DNA of 7,071 nt from a virus (IMGVR_UViG_2778261418_000022:1-7071); one strand, 5' to 3'. Positions 1-7,071 are shown, counted from the stretch's first letter. Notes: a model not told the origin generated them from the sequence alone. Numbers and translations: made by a program.

Positions 1-2856
1 CGGATGCGCAGGATGACGCCGGACAGCACCACAGACCAGCTGCAGAACAAAACGCTCTGGTCGTCATACACCGAAATCATCGATGTGAAACAGTGCTACC
101 CGAACACGGCACTGGTCGGCGTACAGGTGGATTCGGAGCAGTTCGGCAGCCAGCAGGTGAGCCGTAATTATCATCTTCGCGGGCGCATTCTGCAGGTGCC
201 GTCGAACTATAACCCGCAGACGCGGCAATACAGCGGTATCTGGGACGGAACGTTTAAGCCAGCATACAGCAACAACATGGCCTGGTGTCTGTGGGATATG
301 CTGACCCACCCGCGCTACGGCATGGGGAAACGTCTTGGTGCGGCGGATGTGGATAAATGGGCGCTGTATGTCATCGGCCAGTACTGCGACCAGTCGGTGC
401 CGGACGGCTTTGGCGGCACGGAGCCGCGCATTACCTGTAATGCGTACCTGACCACACAGCGCAAGGCGTGGGATGTGCTCAGTGATTTCTGCTCGGCGAT
501 GCGCTGTATGCCGGTATGGAACGGGCAGACGCTGACGTTCGTGCAGGACCGACCCTCGGATAAGGTGTGGACCTATAACCGCAGTAATGTGGTGATGCCG
601 GATGATGGCGCGCCGTTCCGCTACAGCTTCAGCGCCCTGAAGGACCGCCATAATGCCGTTGAGGTGAACTGGATTGACCCGAATAACGGCTGGGAGACGG
701 CGACAGAGCTTGTGGAGGACACGCAGGCCATTGCCCGTTACGGTCGTAACGTCACGAAGATGGATGCCTTTGGCTGTACCAGCCGGGGGCAGGCACACCG
801 CGCCGGGCTGTGGCTGATTAAAACGGAGCTGCTGGAAACGCAGACCGTGGACTTCAGCGTGGGCGCAGAAGGGCTTCGCCATGTACCGGGCGATGTCATT
901 GAAATCTGTGATGATGACTATGCGGGTATCAGCACCGGCGGGCGCGTGCTGGCGGTGAACAGCCAGACGCGGACACTGACGCTCGACCGTGAAATCACGC
1001 TGCCATCCTCCGGCACCACGCTGATAAGCCTGGTTGACGGAAGTGGCAATCCGGTGAGCGTGGAGGTCCAGTCCGTCACCGACGGCGTGAAGGTGAAAGT
1101 GAGCCGTGTTCCTGACGGCGTTGCCGGATACAGCGTGTGGGGACTGAAGCTGCCGACGCTGCGCCAGCGCCTGTTCCGCTGCGTGAGTATCCGTGAGAAC
1201 GACGACGGCACGTATGCCATCACCGCCGTGCAGCATATACCGGAAAAAGAAGCCATCGTGGATAACGGGGCGCACTTTGACGGCGACCAGAGCGGCACGG
1301 TGAATGGTGTCACGCCGCCAGCGGTGCAGCACCTGACTGCCGAAGTCACCGCAGACAGCGGGGAGTATCAGGTACTGGCCCGCTGGGACACGCCGAAGGT
1401 GGTGAAGGGCGTGAGCTTCCTGCTCCGTCTGACCGTAACAGCGGATGACGGCAGTGAGCGGCTGGTCAGCACGGCCCGGACGACGGAAACCACATACCGC
1501 TTCAGGCAGCTGGCGCTGGGGAACTACAGACTGACAGTCAGGGCGGTAAATGCCTGGGGGCAGCAGGGTGATCCGGCGTCGGTATCATTCCGGATTGCCG
1601 CACCGGCAGCACCGTCGCGGATTGAGCTGACGCCGGGCTATTTTCAGATCACCGCCACGCCGCATCTTGCGGTTTACGATCCGACGGTACAGTTTGAGTT
1701 CTGGTTCTCGGAAAAGCGGATTGCGGATATCAGGCAGGTTGAAACCACAGCCCGCTATCTTGGTACGGGGCTGTACTGGATAGCTGCCAGTATCAATATC
1801 AAACCGGGCCATGATTATTACTTTTATATCCGCAGTGTGAACACCGTTGGCAAATCGGCATTCGTAGAGGCTGTTGGTCGGGCGAGCGATGATGCGGAAG
1901 GCTATCTGGATTTTTTCAAAGGTCAGATAACCGAATCCCATCTCGGCAAGGAGCTGCTGGAAAAAGTCGAGCTGACGGAAGATAACGCCAGCAAACTGGA
2001 GGAGTTTTCGAAAGAGTGGAAGGACGCCAACGATAAATGGAATGCCATGTGGGGCGTCAAAATTGAGCAGACCGAAGACGGTAAGCATTATGTCGCGGGG
2101 CTTGGCCTCAGCATGGAGGATACAGAGGAAGGCAAACTGAGCCAGTTTCTGGTTGCCGCCAATCGTATCGCGTTTATTGACCCGGCAAACGGGAATGAAA
2201 CGCCGATGTTTGTGGCGCAGGGCAATCAGATATTCATGAACGAAGTATTCCTGAAGTATCTGACGGCTCCTACCATTACCAGCGGCGGTAATCCTCCGGC
2301 ATTTTCCCTGACACCGGACGGAAAGCTGACCGCTAAAAATGCAGATATCAGTGGCAGTGTGAATGCGAACGCCGGGACGCTCAACAACGTCACGATTAAT
2401 GAGAGCTGTACTATTAAGGGGATGCTTGATGCTAACCAGGTGCGTGGTGATTTTGTAAAAACGACAGGGCATCGATTTCCGCACCCCGGAGAATACCCAC
2501 AGGGTTCACTTACCGTTCATATTAAGGACGATCATGCCTTTGACAGGCAGATTATAATTCAACCAATCATGTACGGTGCACCACCATATTTTAGTAAAAA
2601 TGATGGCGCTAATATCTACGATACCTGCAGATTAATTGTGCGCAAAAATGGCAATGTAATCTATGACAAATCCACTAGTGGTTCGAAAAGGACAACAGTC
2701 GTGTACAGCAATATCATTGATATGCCAGTGGGGGACGGAGATGTAATATTAACATTTGAAGTTCAGTCGAGCGGCAGTGGAAATCCCAGAACATGGATCA
2801 GTGATTTAATGGTCTCGGTAACGAAAAAAGCCGCATCCGGTATCAGTATCAGTTGA
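1..2856 (+). CDS. J: Tail tip host-specificity protein, lambda J family (central fibre); 5'-truncated by the window edge, about 950 codons present, stop at 2854-2856
   Basis: Continuous open frame from base 1 to the TGA at 2854-2856. Size and position directly upstream of a lom-like gene match lambda J. The region around nt 1310-1860 translates to two tandem beta-rich repeats with a fibronectin-III-like pattern (e.g. [27 protein letters not shown]). The conserved part is about 60% GC. The overlapping minus-strand ORFs are read as spurious. Confidence 0.88.
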
Positions 2857-2876
2857 AATTTTTATAACCCCAATAC

Positions 2877-2904
2877 GGGCGCCAGAAATGGCGCCTTTTT
2901 TATT
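2877..2904 (+). terminator. Rho-independent terminator candidate downstream of J
   Basis: GC stem GGCGCC (2878-2883), loop AGAAAT, stem GGCGCC (2890-2895), followed directly by TTTTTTATT (2896-2904). Confidence 0.6.
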
Positions 2905-2925
2905 GCAGAAAAGCGAGAGGTAATT

Positions 2926-3525
2926 ATGCGTAAAGTTTGTGCAGCCATTTTGTCCGCAGCCATCTGTCTGGCCGTATCCGGTGCGTCTGCATGGGCGTCT
3001 GAACATCAGTCCACACTGAGCGCAGGGTATCTTCATGCCCGTACGAACGCACCCGGCAGCGATAATCTGAACGGGATTAACGTGAAATACCGTTATGAGT
3101 TTACGGACACACTGGGGCTGGTGACGTCATTCAGCTATGCAGGAGACAAGAATCGCCAGCTTACCCGTTACAGCGATACCCGCTGGCATGAAGATTCAGT
3201 GCGTAACCGCTGGTTCAGCGTGATGGCGGGGCCCTCTGTGTGCGTGAATGAATGGTTCAGCGCGTATGCGATGGCGGGTATGGCTTACAGCCGTGTTTCG
3301 ACTTTCTCCGGAGATTATCTCCGCGTAACTGACAACAAGGGGAAAAAGCACGATGTGCTGACCGGAAGTGATGACAGTCGCCACAGCAACACGTCTCTGG
3401 CGTGGGGGGCAGGCGTGCAGTTTAACCCGACCGAATCCGTGGCCATTGATATTGCTTATGAAGGCTCCGGCAGTGGTGACTGGCGCACTGACGGTTTCAT
3501 CGTGGGTGTCGGTTATAAATTCTGA
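2926..3525 (+). CDS. lom: Outer-membrane beta-barrel protein of the Ail/Lom/OmpX family (lambda Lom-like moron), 199 aa
   Basis: ATG at 2926 preceded by GAGAGG (2915-2920). N-terminus [24 protein letters not shown] is a typical Sec signal peptide with AxA cleavage motif. Mature protein has alternating aromatic/hydrophobic beta-strand patterns and a C-terminal ...GVGYKF ending in Phe, as in outer-membrane barrels. Near-identical by recall to lambda Lom (about 206 aa) and in the same place between J and stf. Confidence 0.92.
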
Positions 3526-3551
3526 TTAGCCAGGTAACACAGTGTTATGAC

Positions 3552-3579
3552 AGCCCGCCGGTTCAGGCGGGCTTTTTTG
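3552..3579 (+). terminator. Rho-independent terminator candidate downstream of lom
   Basis: Perfect 8-bp stem AGCCCGCC (3552-3559) / GGCGGGCT (3566-3573) with loop GGTTCA, followed by TTTTTT (3574-3579). Confidence 0.7.
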
Positions 3580-3589
3580 TGGGGTGAAT

Positions 3590-5893
3590 ATGGCAGTAAA
3601 GATTTCAGGTGTACTGAAAGACGGCACAGGAAAACCGGTACAGAACTGCACAATCCAGCTGAAAGCAAAACGTAACAGCACCACGGTGGTGGTGAACACG
3701 CTGGCCTCAGAAAATCCGGATGAAGCCGGGCGTTACAGTATGGACGTTGAGTACGGTCAGTACAGCGTTATTTTGTTGGTGGAAGGGTTCCCGCCGTCAC
3801 ATGCCGGGACCATCACCGTGTATGAAGATTCTCAACCCGGTACGCTGAATGATTTTCTCGGTGCCATGACGGAGGATGATGCCCGTCCGGAGGCACTGCG
3901 CCGTTTTGAACTGATGGTGGAAGAGGTGGCGCGTAACGCGTCCGTAGTGGCACAGAACACGGCAGCCGCGAAGAAGTCAGCCAGCGATGCCAGCACATCA
4001 GCCCGTGAGGCGGCAACCCATGCAACTGATGCTGCAGACTCAGCACGCGCAGCCAGAACGTCAGCCGGACAGGCCGCGACGTCGGCTCAGGAGGCTTTTT
4101 CCAGCGCAGGAACGGCATCAGCAAAGGCCACTGAAGCATCAAAAAGTGCTGCCGCAGCAGAGTCCTCAAAAAGCGCGGCGGCCACCAGTGCCGGTGCCGC
4201 GAAAACGTCTGAAACGAATGCGGCAGCGTCACAACAATCAGCAGCCACTTCTGCATCCACCGCGACCACGAAAGCGTCAGAAGCAGCCACTTCAGCACGG
4301 AATGCGGCGGCTTCAAAAGAGGCGGCAAAATCATCAGAAACGAGTGCAGCCTTGAGCGCCAGTAGTGCAGCCTCCTCGGCAACGGCGGCAGGAAATTCCG
4401 CGAAGGCGGCAAAAACGTCCGAGACGAACGCAAGGTCTTCTGAAACAGCGGCAGCACAGAACGCCTCAGCTGCAGCAGATTCAGAAACTGCTGCAGAGAC
4501 GTCCGCCAACGCTGCGGCTACGAAGGCGACAGAGGCGGCAGACAGTGCGGCGGAGGCTGAGCGGAGCAAAAGTACAGCAGAGTCCGCGGCAACCCGAGCC
4601 GAGACAGCGGCAAAGCGGGCAGAGGATATCGCATCCGCCGTGGGGCTTGAGGATGCGAGTACAACGAAAAAGGGAATAGTACAGCTCAGCAGTGCTGCCA
4701 ACAGCACATCTGAAGCATTTGCTGCAACCCCAAAAGCCGTCAAAATCGTCATGGACGAGACGAAAACCAAAGCGCCGCTGGACAGCCCGGCATTCACCGG
4801 TACGCCAACCACACCAACCCCACCGGATGATGCGGTCGGACTGGAGATGGCGAACGCGGCGTTTGTCCGCAAACTGCTCGCTGCGCTGGTTGGCTCGTCC
4901 CCGGAAGCCCTGGACACGCTGAACGAACTGGCAGCGGCGCTGGGTAATGACCCAAACTTTGCGACGACGGTCACTAACGCACTGGCAGGTAAACAGCCGC
5001 TTAGCGATATTTTAACAGCGATTAGCAAATTAACAGTACGGGCAGATAACCTTCTGTATTTTAATACCGGAGGGAATATCGCGCTGTCTCCGTTGTCAGC
5101 AAAAGCCCGCTCACTGCTGGCGCAGTTCACATCCGAAGATATGCGGCAGGTGCTTGAAATCTCAGATAGCGTGGCATTACAAAGTAATATTTATGATCGC
5201 ACTGAAGGGAGAGGAGCATTACCGGGGACATTGGGTTTTGGAGCACTGACTTCGACGATTAAATATTTTAGCGCAAGTGATGGTCAGTCTGAGCTTGTAA
5301 CCTGGTGTATGCAGACGCCGCCAGGGCGCTACCTTGTGGAGCAGAGAACACATCCGGATTTTAATCCCATCATTCCGGATATTGGTTTTACCGGAGTGCT
5401 CGAAATTAAAATTTCTGACAGGGTATACAGTCAGGCAGAACATCAGGGCAAAAGAAAATTACTGACATTTTATGAACAGTATGGGGATGTCTATCGAACA
5501 GTTCTTGATGCAGATCCCGTAAGCCCGTCCCTGCGCCCCTGGGACTCAGGCTACATAAACAGAAGCGGGATTGCCAGTCTGCTTGGGAGCGATAGCCAGG
5601 CCCCGGAAGTCGGTAATATTATTCTTGCAGCCTATTACGGTACATCAGACAGCGATATGACCAGAACTCTGCAGAGAGGAAAGATTTATCCAGGTTCAAG
5701 GCTGGGGCATGTGGAATTCTCGGGAGGGGTGGCGACAGGCGCTGGCGTAAAAGGAATCACACCAACTTGTTATGTCAGTGGACTGTCATATTCGCTTTCC
5801 CTGCCCGGGGCATACAGAGCGTTATCTGGTTCGGGTGGTGTACTGATGGCTGACAACAACACTATTGTGGGGTTATTTGTGCGGGTACGGTAG
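3590..5893 (+). CDS. stf: Side tail fibre protein, lambda Stf-like, with conserved N-terminal and Ala-rich shaft region and a divergent AT-richer C-terminal distal domain
   Basis: ATG at 3590 gives MAVKISGVLKDGTGKPVQNCTIQLKA..., matching by recall the lambda Stf N-terminus. The track's GTG at 3584 is an in-frame upstream alternative. GGGGTG lies just upstream as a Shine-Dalgarno-like element. Single uninterrupted frame to TAG at 5891-5893, so it is not split as in laboratory lambda (orf401/orf314). Long Ala/Ser/Thr-rich shaft, then a compositionally distinct C-terminal third. Confidence 0.88.
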   Translation: MAVKISGVLKDGTGKPVQNCTIQLKAKRNSTTVVVNTLASENPDEAGRYSMDVEYGQYSVILLVEGFPPSHAGTITVYEDSQPGTLNDFLGAMTEDDARPEALRRFELMVEEVARNASVVAQNTAAAKKSASDASTSAREAATHATDAADSARAARTSAGQAATSAQEAFSSAGTASAKATEASKSAAAAESSKSAAATSAGAAKTSETNAAASQQSAATSASTATTKASEAATSARNAAASKEAAKSSETSAALSASSAASSATAAGNSAKAAKTSETNARSSETAAAQNASAAADSETAAETSANAAATKATEAADSAAEAERSKSTAESAATRAETAAKRAEDIASAVGLEDASTTKKGIVQLSSAANSTSEAFAATPKAVKIVMDETKTKAPLDSPAFTGTPTTPTPPDDAVGLEMANAAFVRKLLAALVGSSPEALDTLNELAAALGNDPNFATTVTNALAGKQPLSDILTAISKLTVRADNLLYFNTGGNIALSPLSAKARSLLAQFTSEDMRQVLEISDSVALQSNIYDRTEGRGALPGTLGFGALTSTIKYFSASDGQSELVTWCMQTPPGRYLVEQRTHPDFNPIIPDIGFTGVLEIKISDRVYSQAEHQGKRKLLTFYEQYGDVYRTVLDADPVSPSLRPWDSGYINRSGIASLLGSDSQAPEVGNIILAAYYGTSDSDMTRTLQRGKIYPGSRLGHVEFSGGVATGAGVKGITPTCYVSGLSYSLSLPGAYRALSGSGGVLMADNNTIVGLFVRVR
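3950..4640 (+). repeat. Low-complexity Ala/Ser/Thr-rich repetitive shaft-coding region inside stf, with imperfect internal direct repeats
   Basis: Translation is dominated by short degenerate units of the form SAxxAxTSA / AAKTSETNA. Near-identical DNA copies occur, e.g. gccgcgaaaacgtctgaaacgaatgc (4197-4222) versus gcggcaaaaacgtccgagacgaacgc (about 4404-4429). GCN/GCR-rich sequence gives long spurious ORFs in other frames. Confidence 0.6.
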
Positions 5894-5896
5894 CTG

Positions 5897-6478
5897 ATGA
5901 TGAAAATAAAAGATATTAAAAAGATATTCAGACTGGAAAATGGTGCTGTGGATTGTGAGGTGTTGTTTTTCGGTATGGAAGAGTATTTGCCTTACACTGC
6001 ATCGCCGGAAGACATGGATGAGACAGGGCAGCGCATCTGGAAAGAGTTACAGAGCGGCAAATGGGGCGAAATTTCCCCGTTTACCGTCACCCCTGAACTT
6101 ATCGCTGCGGCAAAGGATGCCAAAAAGTGGGAAATTGAGGCGTGGCGAACAAAACAGGAGGCGCAGCCGTTCACGTTCGAATGGAGCGGTCGTATCTGGA
6201 ACGCCGGCCCCGACTCACTGGCCCGTCTTTATCCGGTGGTAATGGCCGCAAAATCTGATACGGCACGAACCGCCCTTGCGTGGGGTGACGCTGATAATCA
6301 ACAGGTGAAACTTTCAATGCCAGAACTGGAAGAGCTGGCAGCAGCAATGGCACAGGCGCAGGTCGATCGCAACGACGAGATTTATCGTCGTCAGCGGGAG
6401 ATGAAGCAAGAGCTGAATAACCTGAATGATTTACGCTCAATCAGAGCGATGGCGATTAGCGGCAATCACGCTCGATAA
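5897..6478 (+). CDS. Putative tail fibre assembly chaperone in the tfa position, 193 aa; family not confirmed
   Basis: ATG at 5897 lies 3 nt after the stf stop (TAG CTG ATG ATG), indicating translational coupling. Its length is close to lambda Tfa (194 aa) and it occupies the position directly after stf. The sequence does not match lambda Tfa from memory, so the call rests on synteny and size; the coding call itself is stronger than the product call. Confidence 0.6.
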   Translation: MMKIKDIKKIFRLENGAVDCEVLFFGMEEYLPYTASPEDMDETGQRIWKELQSGKWGEISPFTVTPELIAAAKDAKKWEIEAWRTKQEAQPFTFEWSGRIWNAGPDSLARLYPVVMAAKSDTARTALAWGDADNQQVKLSMPELEELAAAMAQAQVDRNDEIYRRQREMKQELNNLNDLRSIRAMAISGNHAR

Positions 6479-6481
6479 ATT

Positions 6482-6507
6482 AACCCCGGTGATCATCCGG
6501 GGTTTTG
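6482..6507. terminator. Candidate bidirectional terminator between convergent genes
   Basis: Stem AACCCCGG (6482-6489) / CCGGGGTT (6497-6504) with loop TGATCAT, followed by a T-run on the + strand (6503-6506). It sits in the 35-bp gap between the tfa-position gene stop (6478) and the minus-strand gene stop (6514). Confidence 0.5.
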
Positions 6508-6513
6508 CATTCA

Positions 6514-7071
6514 TTAAAACCGCATCAACCTTTCCACCAATTGTTCTTTACGGGCAACGATCCACCCATGTTGCTCCAGATAAAATTTAAACCGTTCCAG
6601 AGTGCATACCATCGCATCGGCGGGGACTTTTTCTGTGAACTCGACCTGACCGTGTTTATCGAAGTGGATCAGTAATGCGCATCCATTATTTGGGGCGGGG
6701 GAGTTTTGTGCTGCAGGAGGACGTTTGTGGAGTTCTTCTTCCATTGCGTTAATTTTTTCAATGTAAGCTTCTTTTAGTCTGGCTGCTTTTTTGCCAGTAA
6801 ATCCCATTACGAGGAACATGAAGCCGTCTTTTGTGATCAGGTAACATCGTGATTCACGTTCTGCGCCGTTGCCAATTTCGACAGTCTGAACATCGGCCGA
6901 AAAGTTGGCTGATGTAAATTCGGGAGAGCAGTCGAGTGTGTCAATCTTAGCTAAAACGTGTTTATGTTGTTTATCGAAGTAGTCGGCAACAGCTTGAGAG
7001 GTGGTAACCAGGCGACCATCTTTGAAAAAGGCTTTTGGTGACTCGTTAGAAAAAGTTATAGCTGTATTCAT
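6514..7071 (-). CDS. Rha-family phage regulatory protein (antirepressor-like N-terminal domain) with an uncharacterised C-terminal region, 185 aa
   Basis: Complete ORF on the minus strand; the ATG is the reverse complement of 7069-7071 at the window edge, stop at 6514-6516. The N-terminal half (...GRLVTTSQAVADYFDKQHKHVLAKI...ITKDGFMFLVMGFTGKKAARLKEAYIEKINAMEEEL) fits the recalled Phage_pRha domain pattern. The C-terminal ~70 aa have no family I recognise. The promoter and any RBS lie beyond the window. Confidence 0.6.
   Translation of the reverse strand: MNTAITFSNESPKAFFKDGRLVTTSQAVADYFDKQHKHVLAKIDTLDCSPEFTSANFSADVQTVEIGNGAERESRCYLITKDGFMFLVMGFTGKKAARLKEAYIEKINAMEEELHKRPPAAQNSPAPNNGCALLIHFDKHGQVEFTEKVPADAMVCTLERFKFYLEQHGWIVARKEQLVERLMRF

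Follow-up and report, generated by a model that had tools for sequence, protein, structure and literature searches.

Antirepressor operons gated by the small RNAs C4 and IsrK have been dissected experimentally in one lambdoid case, the isrK-orf45-anrP region of Gifsy-1. There, the isrK promoter drives transcription of anrP; the read-through mRNA is not translated unless IsrK acts in trans; short IsrK supplied in trans raises anrP translation about 100-fold; and this activation depends on translation of orf45 (Hershko-Shalev et al. 2016, PMC4825925). A stable processed RNA, STnc1160, covers orf45, and AnrP, which raises antQ-operon RNA and induces Gifsy-1, is termed 'anti-repressor-like', its action having been deduced from antQ-operon RNA levels and phage release (PMC4825925). 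The immI region of P1 and P7 (c4 - icd - ant1/ant2), the P1 mechanism of which is summarised, citing Citron & Schuster 1990, in a passage of PMC8201110, and the immA region of N15 (cA RNA - icd - antA - antB) also yield a C4-family RNA from the very transcript that is controlled, as is predicted for the locus described here. In the P1 model C4 represses, whereas in the Gifsy-1 model IsrK activates.

The Rha family (PF09669 / TIGR02681; rha of phi80 and P22) is defined by its head alone, which is joined to many different C-termini, and most of its members have no known mechanism. The original rha phenotype was reportedly an inhibition of phage growth in IHF-deficient hosts. Phage regulators of the Bro/KilA/ANT type are said to form a network of shuffled domains.

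We examined a window of 7,071 nucleotides of viral DNA (the whole stretch analysed, IMGVR_UViG_2778261418_000022:1-7071), which closes with a minus-strand gene for a Rha-headed protein (Table 1). Analysis of this gene and of related loci indicates that it is probably the protein effector of an antirepressor module, gated by the small RNAs C4 and IsrK, at the att-proximal end of a lambdoid prophage in ompW; the best reading of its class places it, as a Rha-headed member, with the antirepressors of P1 immI, N15 immA and Gifsy-1 isrK-orf45-anrP. As the sequence-only reading had recognised, the start codon occupies the final bases of the window (the ATG is the last three in the ORF list) and the gene, being convergent with tfa, is transcribed towards the tail genes. 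Public assemblies contain the exact 185-aa protein in 236 blocks, and the Rha domain is conserved in 41 aligned full-length homologues, so that this is a real, conserved gene. It is already annotated in thousands of genomes, RefSeq relatives with about 99% DNA identity bearing the label 'Rha family transcriptional regulator', and 1138 of 5426 complete E. coli genomes contain similar DNA, which covers at least 80% of the query in 446 of them. The spacer between the convergent tfa and Rha genes measures 35 nt and contains a GC-rich hairpin with predicted folding energies of -14.3 kcal/mol on the minus strand and -15.5 kcal/mol on the plus strand (z -2.6 and -3.0, respectively), a probable terminator shared by the two genes that a strict terminator scan did not call because its T-tract is short.

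Table 1. Features of the window and of the adjoining leader, with sites in related loci. The leader lies outside the window; window positions marked ~ are extrapolated as 17072 minus the L005 coordinate.
Feature	Window position	Strand	Locus coordinates	Remarks
lambda-J-type tip attachment gene, 3' part	4-2856	+		
lom	2926-3525	+		
Side tail fibre gene	3584-5893	+		
DUF4376-type tail fibre assembly gene (tfa)	5897-6478	+		Convergent with Rha gene
GC-rich hairpin in tfa/Rha spacer	6482-6504	.		Stem AACCCCGG/CCGGGGTT, 8 bp
Rha-headed AnrP-type putative antirepressor gene	6514-7071	-		Complete, 185 aa; stop 6514-6516, ATG 7069-7071; ORF list
C-terminal AnrP-type module	6517-6675	-		aa 133-185, ~55 aa; beta-hairpin and two helices
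Low-complexity disordered linker	6676-6723	-		aa 117-132; module boundary
Phage_pRha domain	6736-7005	-		aa 23-112; predicted DNA-binding-type head
45-codon uORF	~7068-7205		L005 9867-10004	ATG at C4 position 5; stop overlaps Rha start as ATGA
C4 antisense RNA (RF01695)	~7122-7209		L005 9863-9950	75.9 bits, cutoff 45; same strand as effector
C4 second hairpin loop UGUGAUGAC				Pairs with the two sites in the next two rows
IsrK site CAUCACAA			L005 9805-9812	
Downstream site GUCAUCACA	~7073-7081		L005 9991-9999	
C4 single-stranded ACGCCAA				Pairs with the two sites in the next two rows
IsrK site UUGGCGU			L005 9789-9795	
Downstream site UUGGCGU			L005 9955-9961	
isrK (Rfam RF01394)	~7234-7308		L005 9764-9838	72.2 bits, cutoff 50
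Promoter TTGACA-18-TATATT	~7315-7344		L005 9728-9757	11/12 match, near-consensus sigma-70
att core	~7530-7564		L005 9508-9542	35-nt word shared with integrase-side junction of L007
sRNA-Xcc1 match			L013 5869-5958	
sRNA-Xcc1 match			L020 3854-3938	
sRNA-Xcc1 match			L025 3881-3973	
sRNA-Xcc1 match			L047 3857-3944	
sRNA-Xcc1 match			L059 3875-3958	

The DNA beyond position 7071 was read from ten loci that encode the identical protein and whose right ends are 98-100% identical to the window (four are identical to its last 1200 bases, and all ten are about 98% identical over positions 2783-7071). Every one of the ten has the order trpLEDCBA, yciGFE, a gap of about 380 bp, the Rha gene and the convergent tfa-stf-lom-J, followed by further tail genes, and five have a small gene call labelled Phage_ASH ahead of the Rha gene. 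Phage DNA continues for about 460 nt past the window in all ten and gives way to the att core, a 3' remnant of ompW and the host genes yciEFG-trp; the Rha gene is hence the terminal gene of a lambdoid prophage inserted in ompW. Between the att core and the Rha ATG the ten sequences are identical, the few differences being confined to the ompW remnant of the host. The integrase side of the prophage was seen in a shortened copy (L007), where it carries Exc, integrase and an intact ompW. RefSeq relatives, including ST131-type strains, end alike, with Rha, an 'ash family protein', truncated ompW and trpA.

The proposal that the gene is the last of a transcription unit starting past position 7071 is borne out by the promoter and leader found there, but the accessory, defence or conversion genes that had been expected upstream are missing: the approximately 460 nt hold the promoter, IsrK, C4 and the uORF, with the att core after them, and in the ten exact loci no gene other than the overlapping uORF, and no defence or conversion gene, lies between the Rha gene and the att site. 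What had been taken for an entry point to anything new leads, once the sequence is extended, to no novel cargo; an RNA switch and the end of a prophage are all that lies beyond the window edge, with nothing unexplored. The cargo of ST131-type relatives (a SAM methyltransferase, invertase and fibre remnants) is found in the interval from tfa to the Rha gene rather than upstream of the latter. These findings bear on the notion that the gene is an accessory 'moron' protecting the lysogen by superinfection exclusion, abortive infection or interference with other phages. Its att-proximal position behind the tail fibre genes, a frequent site of morons, and a strong promoter of its own that could be active in the lysogen are compatible with such a role, which the rha phenotype reported for IHF-deficient hosts might also suggest. 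It is also conceivable that an antirepressor might act in trans on other prophages, Gifsy cross-talk being a cited case (PMC4825925). However, besides the lack of further upstream genes, a defence-system search with PADLOC found nothing (PADLOC-DB has no family matching the protein, the uORF or tfa), tight RNA gating is typical of lysis-lysogeny switches and not of constitutively expressed morons, and close homologues occupy regulatory positions, namely early-left operons by the repressor and, in Gifsy-1, a place beside Q. We consider a protective role very unlikely.

The leader begins with its promoter about 190 nt inside the att core. IsrK ends in a GC hairpin followed by T9, which constitutes an intrinsic terminator, and the isrK match overlaps that to the c4-a1b1 model; the latter scores 43.8 bits in L005, just below the cutoff of 46.7, and exceeds the cutoff in L002, L018, L023, L043 and Gifsy-1. 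C4 ends 50 nt before the Rha ATG. The same RNA elements were found with Rfam in the ST131-type, ORF6N-variant and shortened-prophage loci, and among divergent loci with Rha-type homologues, sampled at one genome per species, C4 or sRNA-Xcc1 lies directly upstream in 17 of 17, with isrK in most. The genera concerned include Lelliottia, Citrobacter, Shigella, Enterobacter, Pantoea, Cedecea and Symbiopectobacterium, as well as Arsenophonus, Vibrio, Veronia, Photobacterium, Shewanella and Ferrimonas. In several genera sRNA-Xcc1 (RF02221), which is not listed under the C4 clan, takes the place of C4 upstream of Rha-type genes, and it looks functionally equivalent to C4 at these loci. By sequence analysis, we take it as shown that a leader under C4/IsrK control has the Rha gene as its protein output. 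A search for LexA boxes (CTGT-N8-ACAG, at most one mismatch) found none near the promoter, and so control of the module looks independent of SOS; SOS control is known for antirepressors of the Gifsy GfoA type and for AntC of N15.

Two segments of C4 are each complementary to one site in IsrK and another downstream of C4 (Table 1), the complementary words measuring 9, 8, 7 and 7 nt at L005 positions 9991, 9805, 9789 and 9955, and this pairing has the a1/b1 plus a2/b2 arrangement of P1 c4. The downstream site GUCAUCACA falls between the GGAG Shine-Dalgarno sequence and the Rha AUG, and the 3' arm of the C4 closing stem has an alternative pairing partner, GAGGUGGUGA, at L005 9964-9973. Folding of the 267-nt leader gave z = -3.9. 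In the predicted fold, a local hairpin takes up the Rha Shine-Dalgarno sequence and the C4 closing stem the uORF AUG, so that both would be sequestered.

Because long-range duplex energies are uninformative for full-length RNAs, exact complementary words were used in their place, and cognate pairs were compared with non-cognate ones. Across 19 loci, the longest Watson-Crick word between C4 and the ribosome-binding region of its own effector (-30 to +5) averages 8.0 nt (range 6-10); most cognate words originate in C4 positions 40-51 and fall at -22 to -5, with sequences that vary from locus to locus. When C4 is set against a non-cognate ribosome-binding region, 196 of 342 pairs lack any word of at least 6 nt and only 16 of 342 reach 8 nt. 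Loop and target have thus changed together across the 19 loci, which is evidence of selection on their interaction.

This co-variation across genera, indicating selection on a regulatory interaction, weighs against the gene being a non-functional relic in the decaying terminal part of a cryptic prophage, a view prompted by the degraded prophages of many carriers (for example, IS21 in lom and the fibre and invertase pseudogenes of the ST131-type locus), by the shortened prophage L007 and by the many truncated database gene calls of the protein. The 185-aa ORF is identical and the leader invariant in ten of the ten exact loci, and the region is present in more than 1,100 E. coli genomes. Defence, as discussed above, is an unlikely function, and so is the lack of any function, the latter to an extreme degree.

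The uORF that overlaps the start of the Rha gene was scored by Pfam as Phage_ASH (PF10554; 28.9 bits versus a cutoff of 26), and no Icd-like match to it was found in NCBIfam. Across 20 loci (among them L005, L099, L002 and L018-L094), the frame behind the uORF AUG is not conserved, ranging from 3 to 45 codons or running on into an in-frame fusion with the effector, and among these 20 the 45-codon version with the AUGA overlap is kept only in the present locus and in Gifsy-1. Since the 'Phage_ASH' ORF sits exactly on C4 and its frame is not conserved, much of the signal attributed to this protein family looks like translation of an RNA gene. The layout of the uORF (45 codons, AUGA overlap) is the one that coupling to the effector would structurally require.

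The sequence-only reading had likened the N-terminal ~110 aa of the protein to the Rha family, and the HMM search agrees: Phage_pRha (PF09669) matches above cutoff over the full domain (91.1 bits versus 29.9; profile positions 1-91 of 91) and TIGR02681 of NCBIfam scores 74.4 bits against a cutoff of 45.95. Phage_pRha is the sole result of the Pfam scan, ANT, P22_AR_N, P22_AR_C and AntA being absent, and the domain is nearly invariant across the 41 homologues. AlphaFold2 predicts with confidence an alpha/beta Rha head at aa 14-116 (pLDDT ~85-92), and in the following linker pLDDT drops below 50 at aa 121-129. DNA similarity to an ORF6N-headed record ends at window position 6730. Searched as a whole, the protein has no Foldseek match to the PDB below E 0.1 and no match in a PDB sequence-profile search.

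The C-terminal ~70 aa had been described as assignable to no family, and indeed Pfam is blank for this region even at E<=10, as is NCBIfam. A domain-only model (mean pLDDT 86) predicts a beta-hairpin followed by two helices, a module for which no sequence or fold match was found in the PDB and no match in BFVD. With phmmer the module retrieves 13 of 1.84 billion representative proteins at E<=0.001; these and word-indexed matches show it behind Phage_pRha, ORF6N, AntA or P22_AR_N heads, and fragments carrying the module suggest a Bro-N-like head as well. One ORF6N-headed protein in the same ompW-proximal position shares 93% identity with the present protein from aa 115 onwards and is unrelated over the preceding part. 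A profile search with the module added little, its candidate step being biased towards short sequences; when a module HMM was applied to all ORFs of 87 fetched loci, only genes directly behind C4-family RNAs matched, and in Gifsy-1 AnrP was the sole match, with no link to the small Gifsy antirepressors. Standalone module proteins of 80-110 aa were rejected as candidates: all start within the last helix of a head domain and are therefore mis-cut gene calls, which provide no evidence for head-less forms.

Other homologues, at 52% identity, lie behind a C4-family RNA in the early-left operon beside the repressor of Rac-like Salmonella prophages. The placements in Rac-like early-left operons, in Gifsy-1 and at the att end therefore put the module in at least three positions of lambdoid genomes. 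Two proteins (P0114 and P0128) considered as AnrP itself were rejected, since they sit in early-left operons of Rac-like Salmonella prophages. In an Enterobacter cloacae assembly with many split genes (L100, 4001-4321), a shortened AntA-type gene with a variant module lies beside trpA, which suggests the same attachment region and prophage-end placement in another genus.

The distribution of heads is pertinent to the main rival explanation, that the protein is a sequence-specific DNA-binding transcription factor whose Rha head binds phage or host promoters directly, to activate or repress them, and which, though still under C4/IsrK control, does not act through a repressor. Among the 41 homologues no part of the protein is better conserved than the Rha domain, databases name the family 'transcriptional regulator', and the top fold matches, weak and not significant, are winged-helix DNA binders. 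Against this, the same leader and C-terminal module occur with four unrelated heads, which speaks against a conserved activity that depends on a single DNA-binding specificity; a search around the promoter and module found no operator-like inverted repeats; and the precedents of the class, P1 Ant and the N15 and Gifsy antirepressors, act on repressor proteins. We regard this alternative as unlikely, though it deserves to be kept in mind.

The preferred reading, an antirepressor gated by C4 and IsrK, is drawn most closely from Gifsy-1. In the Gifsy-1 record AnrP corresponds to STM2616/SL2578, and STM2616 adjoins the Q antiterminator STM2617, matching the position of anrP beside antQ; the intergenic region STM2616-STM2617 scores as isrK, c4-a1b1 and C4, and isrJ follows STM2616. 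Both loci possess, in the same order, a promoter, IsrK, a C4-type RNA (STnc1160 in Gifsy-1) and a 45-codon uORF that starts at C4 position 5 and overlaps the effector by AUGA, and the effectors are of similar size (187 aa for AnrP, 185 aa here). The C-terminal modules are homologous (aa 119-182 of AnrP versus 121-184; 32% identity over 65 aa, E 3e-6), and homology to AnrP is confined to these C-terminal 65 aa. Because AnrP has an ORF6N head and the present protein a Rha head, the latter is not an AnrP orthologue; an ORF6N-headed version with the 93% identical module occupies the same ompW-proximal site in other E. coli. The C4 loop and target sequences differ between the two loci, and in Gifsy-1 the module is placed between Q (antQ) and the lysis genes, with isrJ after it, whereas the present one is the last before attR and lacks isrJ. 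What the two genes share, as judged by alignment and layout, is the regulatory design and the C-terminal module.

The locus also resembles P1 and N15, in which two pairs of complementary sites flank the C4 RNA, the downstream pair lies over the ribosome-binding region, a short ORF overlaps the effector start, and loop/target specificity diverges between elements. Unlike those of P1 and N15, the present leader also terminates as a discrete IsrK sRNA; its effector, with Phage_pRha as the only Pfam match, is unrelated to P1 Ant, its uORF has no Icd-like match in NCBIfam, and it resides in an integrated lambdoid prophage rather than a plasmid prophage. Within the Rha family, of which its head is a full-length, high-scoring member, linkage to a C4 RNA and the AnrP-type C-terminal module mark a specific subgroup. 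Interchangeable head and tail modules are a feature shared with the Bro/KilA/ANT-type regulators, from whose network the present C-terminal module differs in being absent from Pfam and NCBIfam and in having no detectable fold relative.

Comparison with these systems suggests that the module may operate as follows: the sigma-70 promoter would drive an IsrK-type sRNA ending at the intrinsic terminator; read-through past this terminator would extend transcription into C4, the uORF and the Rha gene; the long transcript would, by analogy with Gifsy-1 and P1, be translationally silent; an excess of short IsrK would serve as decoy or opener and relieve the block; translation of the uORF would open the Rha ribosome-binding site through translational coupling; and the protein would antagonise the prophage repressor, starting lytic gene expression independently of SOS, with the conserved C-terminal module as the putative partner-binding part and the swappable Rha head as an adaptor. 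The prophage of the ST131-type relative encodes an S24/LexA-type repressor, presumably cleavable, together with Cro and Q. If the repressor is cleavable, an antirepressor is not obviously required, which counts against this explanation, as do the difference in head from AnrP, the low identity (32% over 65 aa) that connects the two proteins, and the c4-a1b1 score slightly below its cutoff in this locus; given an ordinary S24-type repressor, Cro and Q, the module might therefore be a second route of induction or act on other prophages. A bolder extension, to which we assign an outside chance, is that the C-terminal module is the business end of C4/IsrK-gated antirepressors at large and inactivates lambdoid repressors, cleavable S24-type ones included, to bring about SOS-independent induction in stationary phase or under stress, the Rha, ORF6N, AntA and P22_AR_N heads doing no more than tether it to DNA near its target.

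In the shortened prophage (L007 9728-10558 and 17200-18556), xis (Exc), int and the isrK-C4-Rha unit all lie on the same strand. Transcription of int and attP would enter the module in the excised circle, a topology like that of lambda pL transcription into the b region and sib; the module of this prophage nonetheless has its own strong promoter. Because xis, int, attP, the isrK promoter and rha are co-directional in the excised genome, expression of the module could differ between the integrated and excised states, as with the sib/b region of lambda.

The RNA families, the Rha family and the operon design were already known. What is new is the assignment of a common gene to the AnrP/immI-type class, the recognition that its unassigned C-terminal module is what it has in common with AnrP and that this module is shuffled among several heads, the co-variation of loop and target across genera, and the att-terminal placement of the module. 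A gene common in E. coli and Shigella next to an 'ash family protein' thereby becomes readable as the output of a C4/IsrK-gated antirepressor operon, and what is annotated here as an 'Ash' protein is for the most part the reflection of an RNA gene. Should the module function as it does in Gifsy-1, an SOS-independent route of prophage induction would be present in about one-fifth of sequenced E. coli, including the ST131-type strains sampled; the small C-terminal module shared with AnrP offers a concrete target for biochemistry.

The prophage end of one ST131-type locus (L001 4961-15076) is heavily rearranged, with an IS21-family element inside lom, duplicated and inverted remnants of tail fibre and assembly genes accompanied by a recombinase fragment, a class I SAM-dependent methyltransferase between tfa and the Rha gene, and a DUF4376 tfa reduced to a pseudogene. 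The lambda-type tfa of the ORF6N-variant prophage contains an Rfam IS009 match (RF02111, 226 bits; L002 12260-12458) that is absent from the DUF4376-type tfa of the window. Within the window, the Ala/Ser-rich middle of the side tail fibre gene (3990-5130) also reads open over long distances in other frames and antisense, as in a minus-strand ORF of 347 aa at 4087-5130; these spurious ORFs are artefacts of composition and not genes. Positions 2410-2782, encoding the C-terminal receptor-binding part of J with its Ig_GpJ_C domain, have no megablast match in any of the ten loci, which match the remainder of the window at 95-98% identity, and the sequence comparison suggests a mosaic swap of this host-range determinant.
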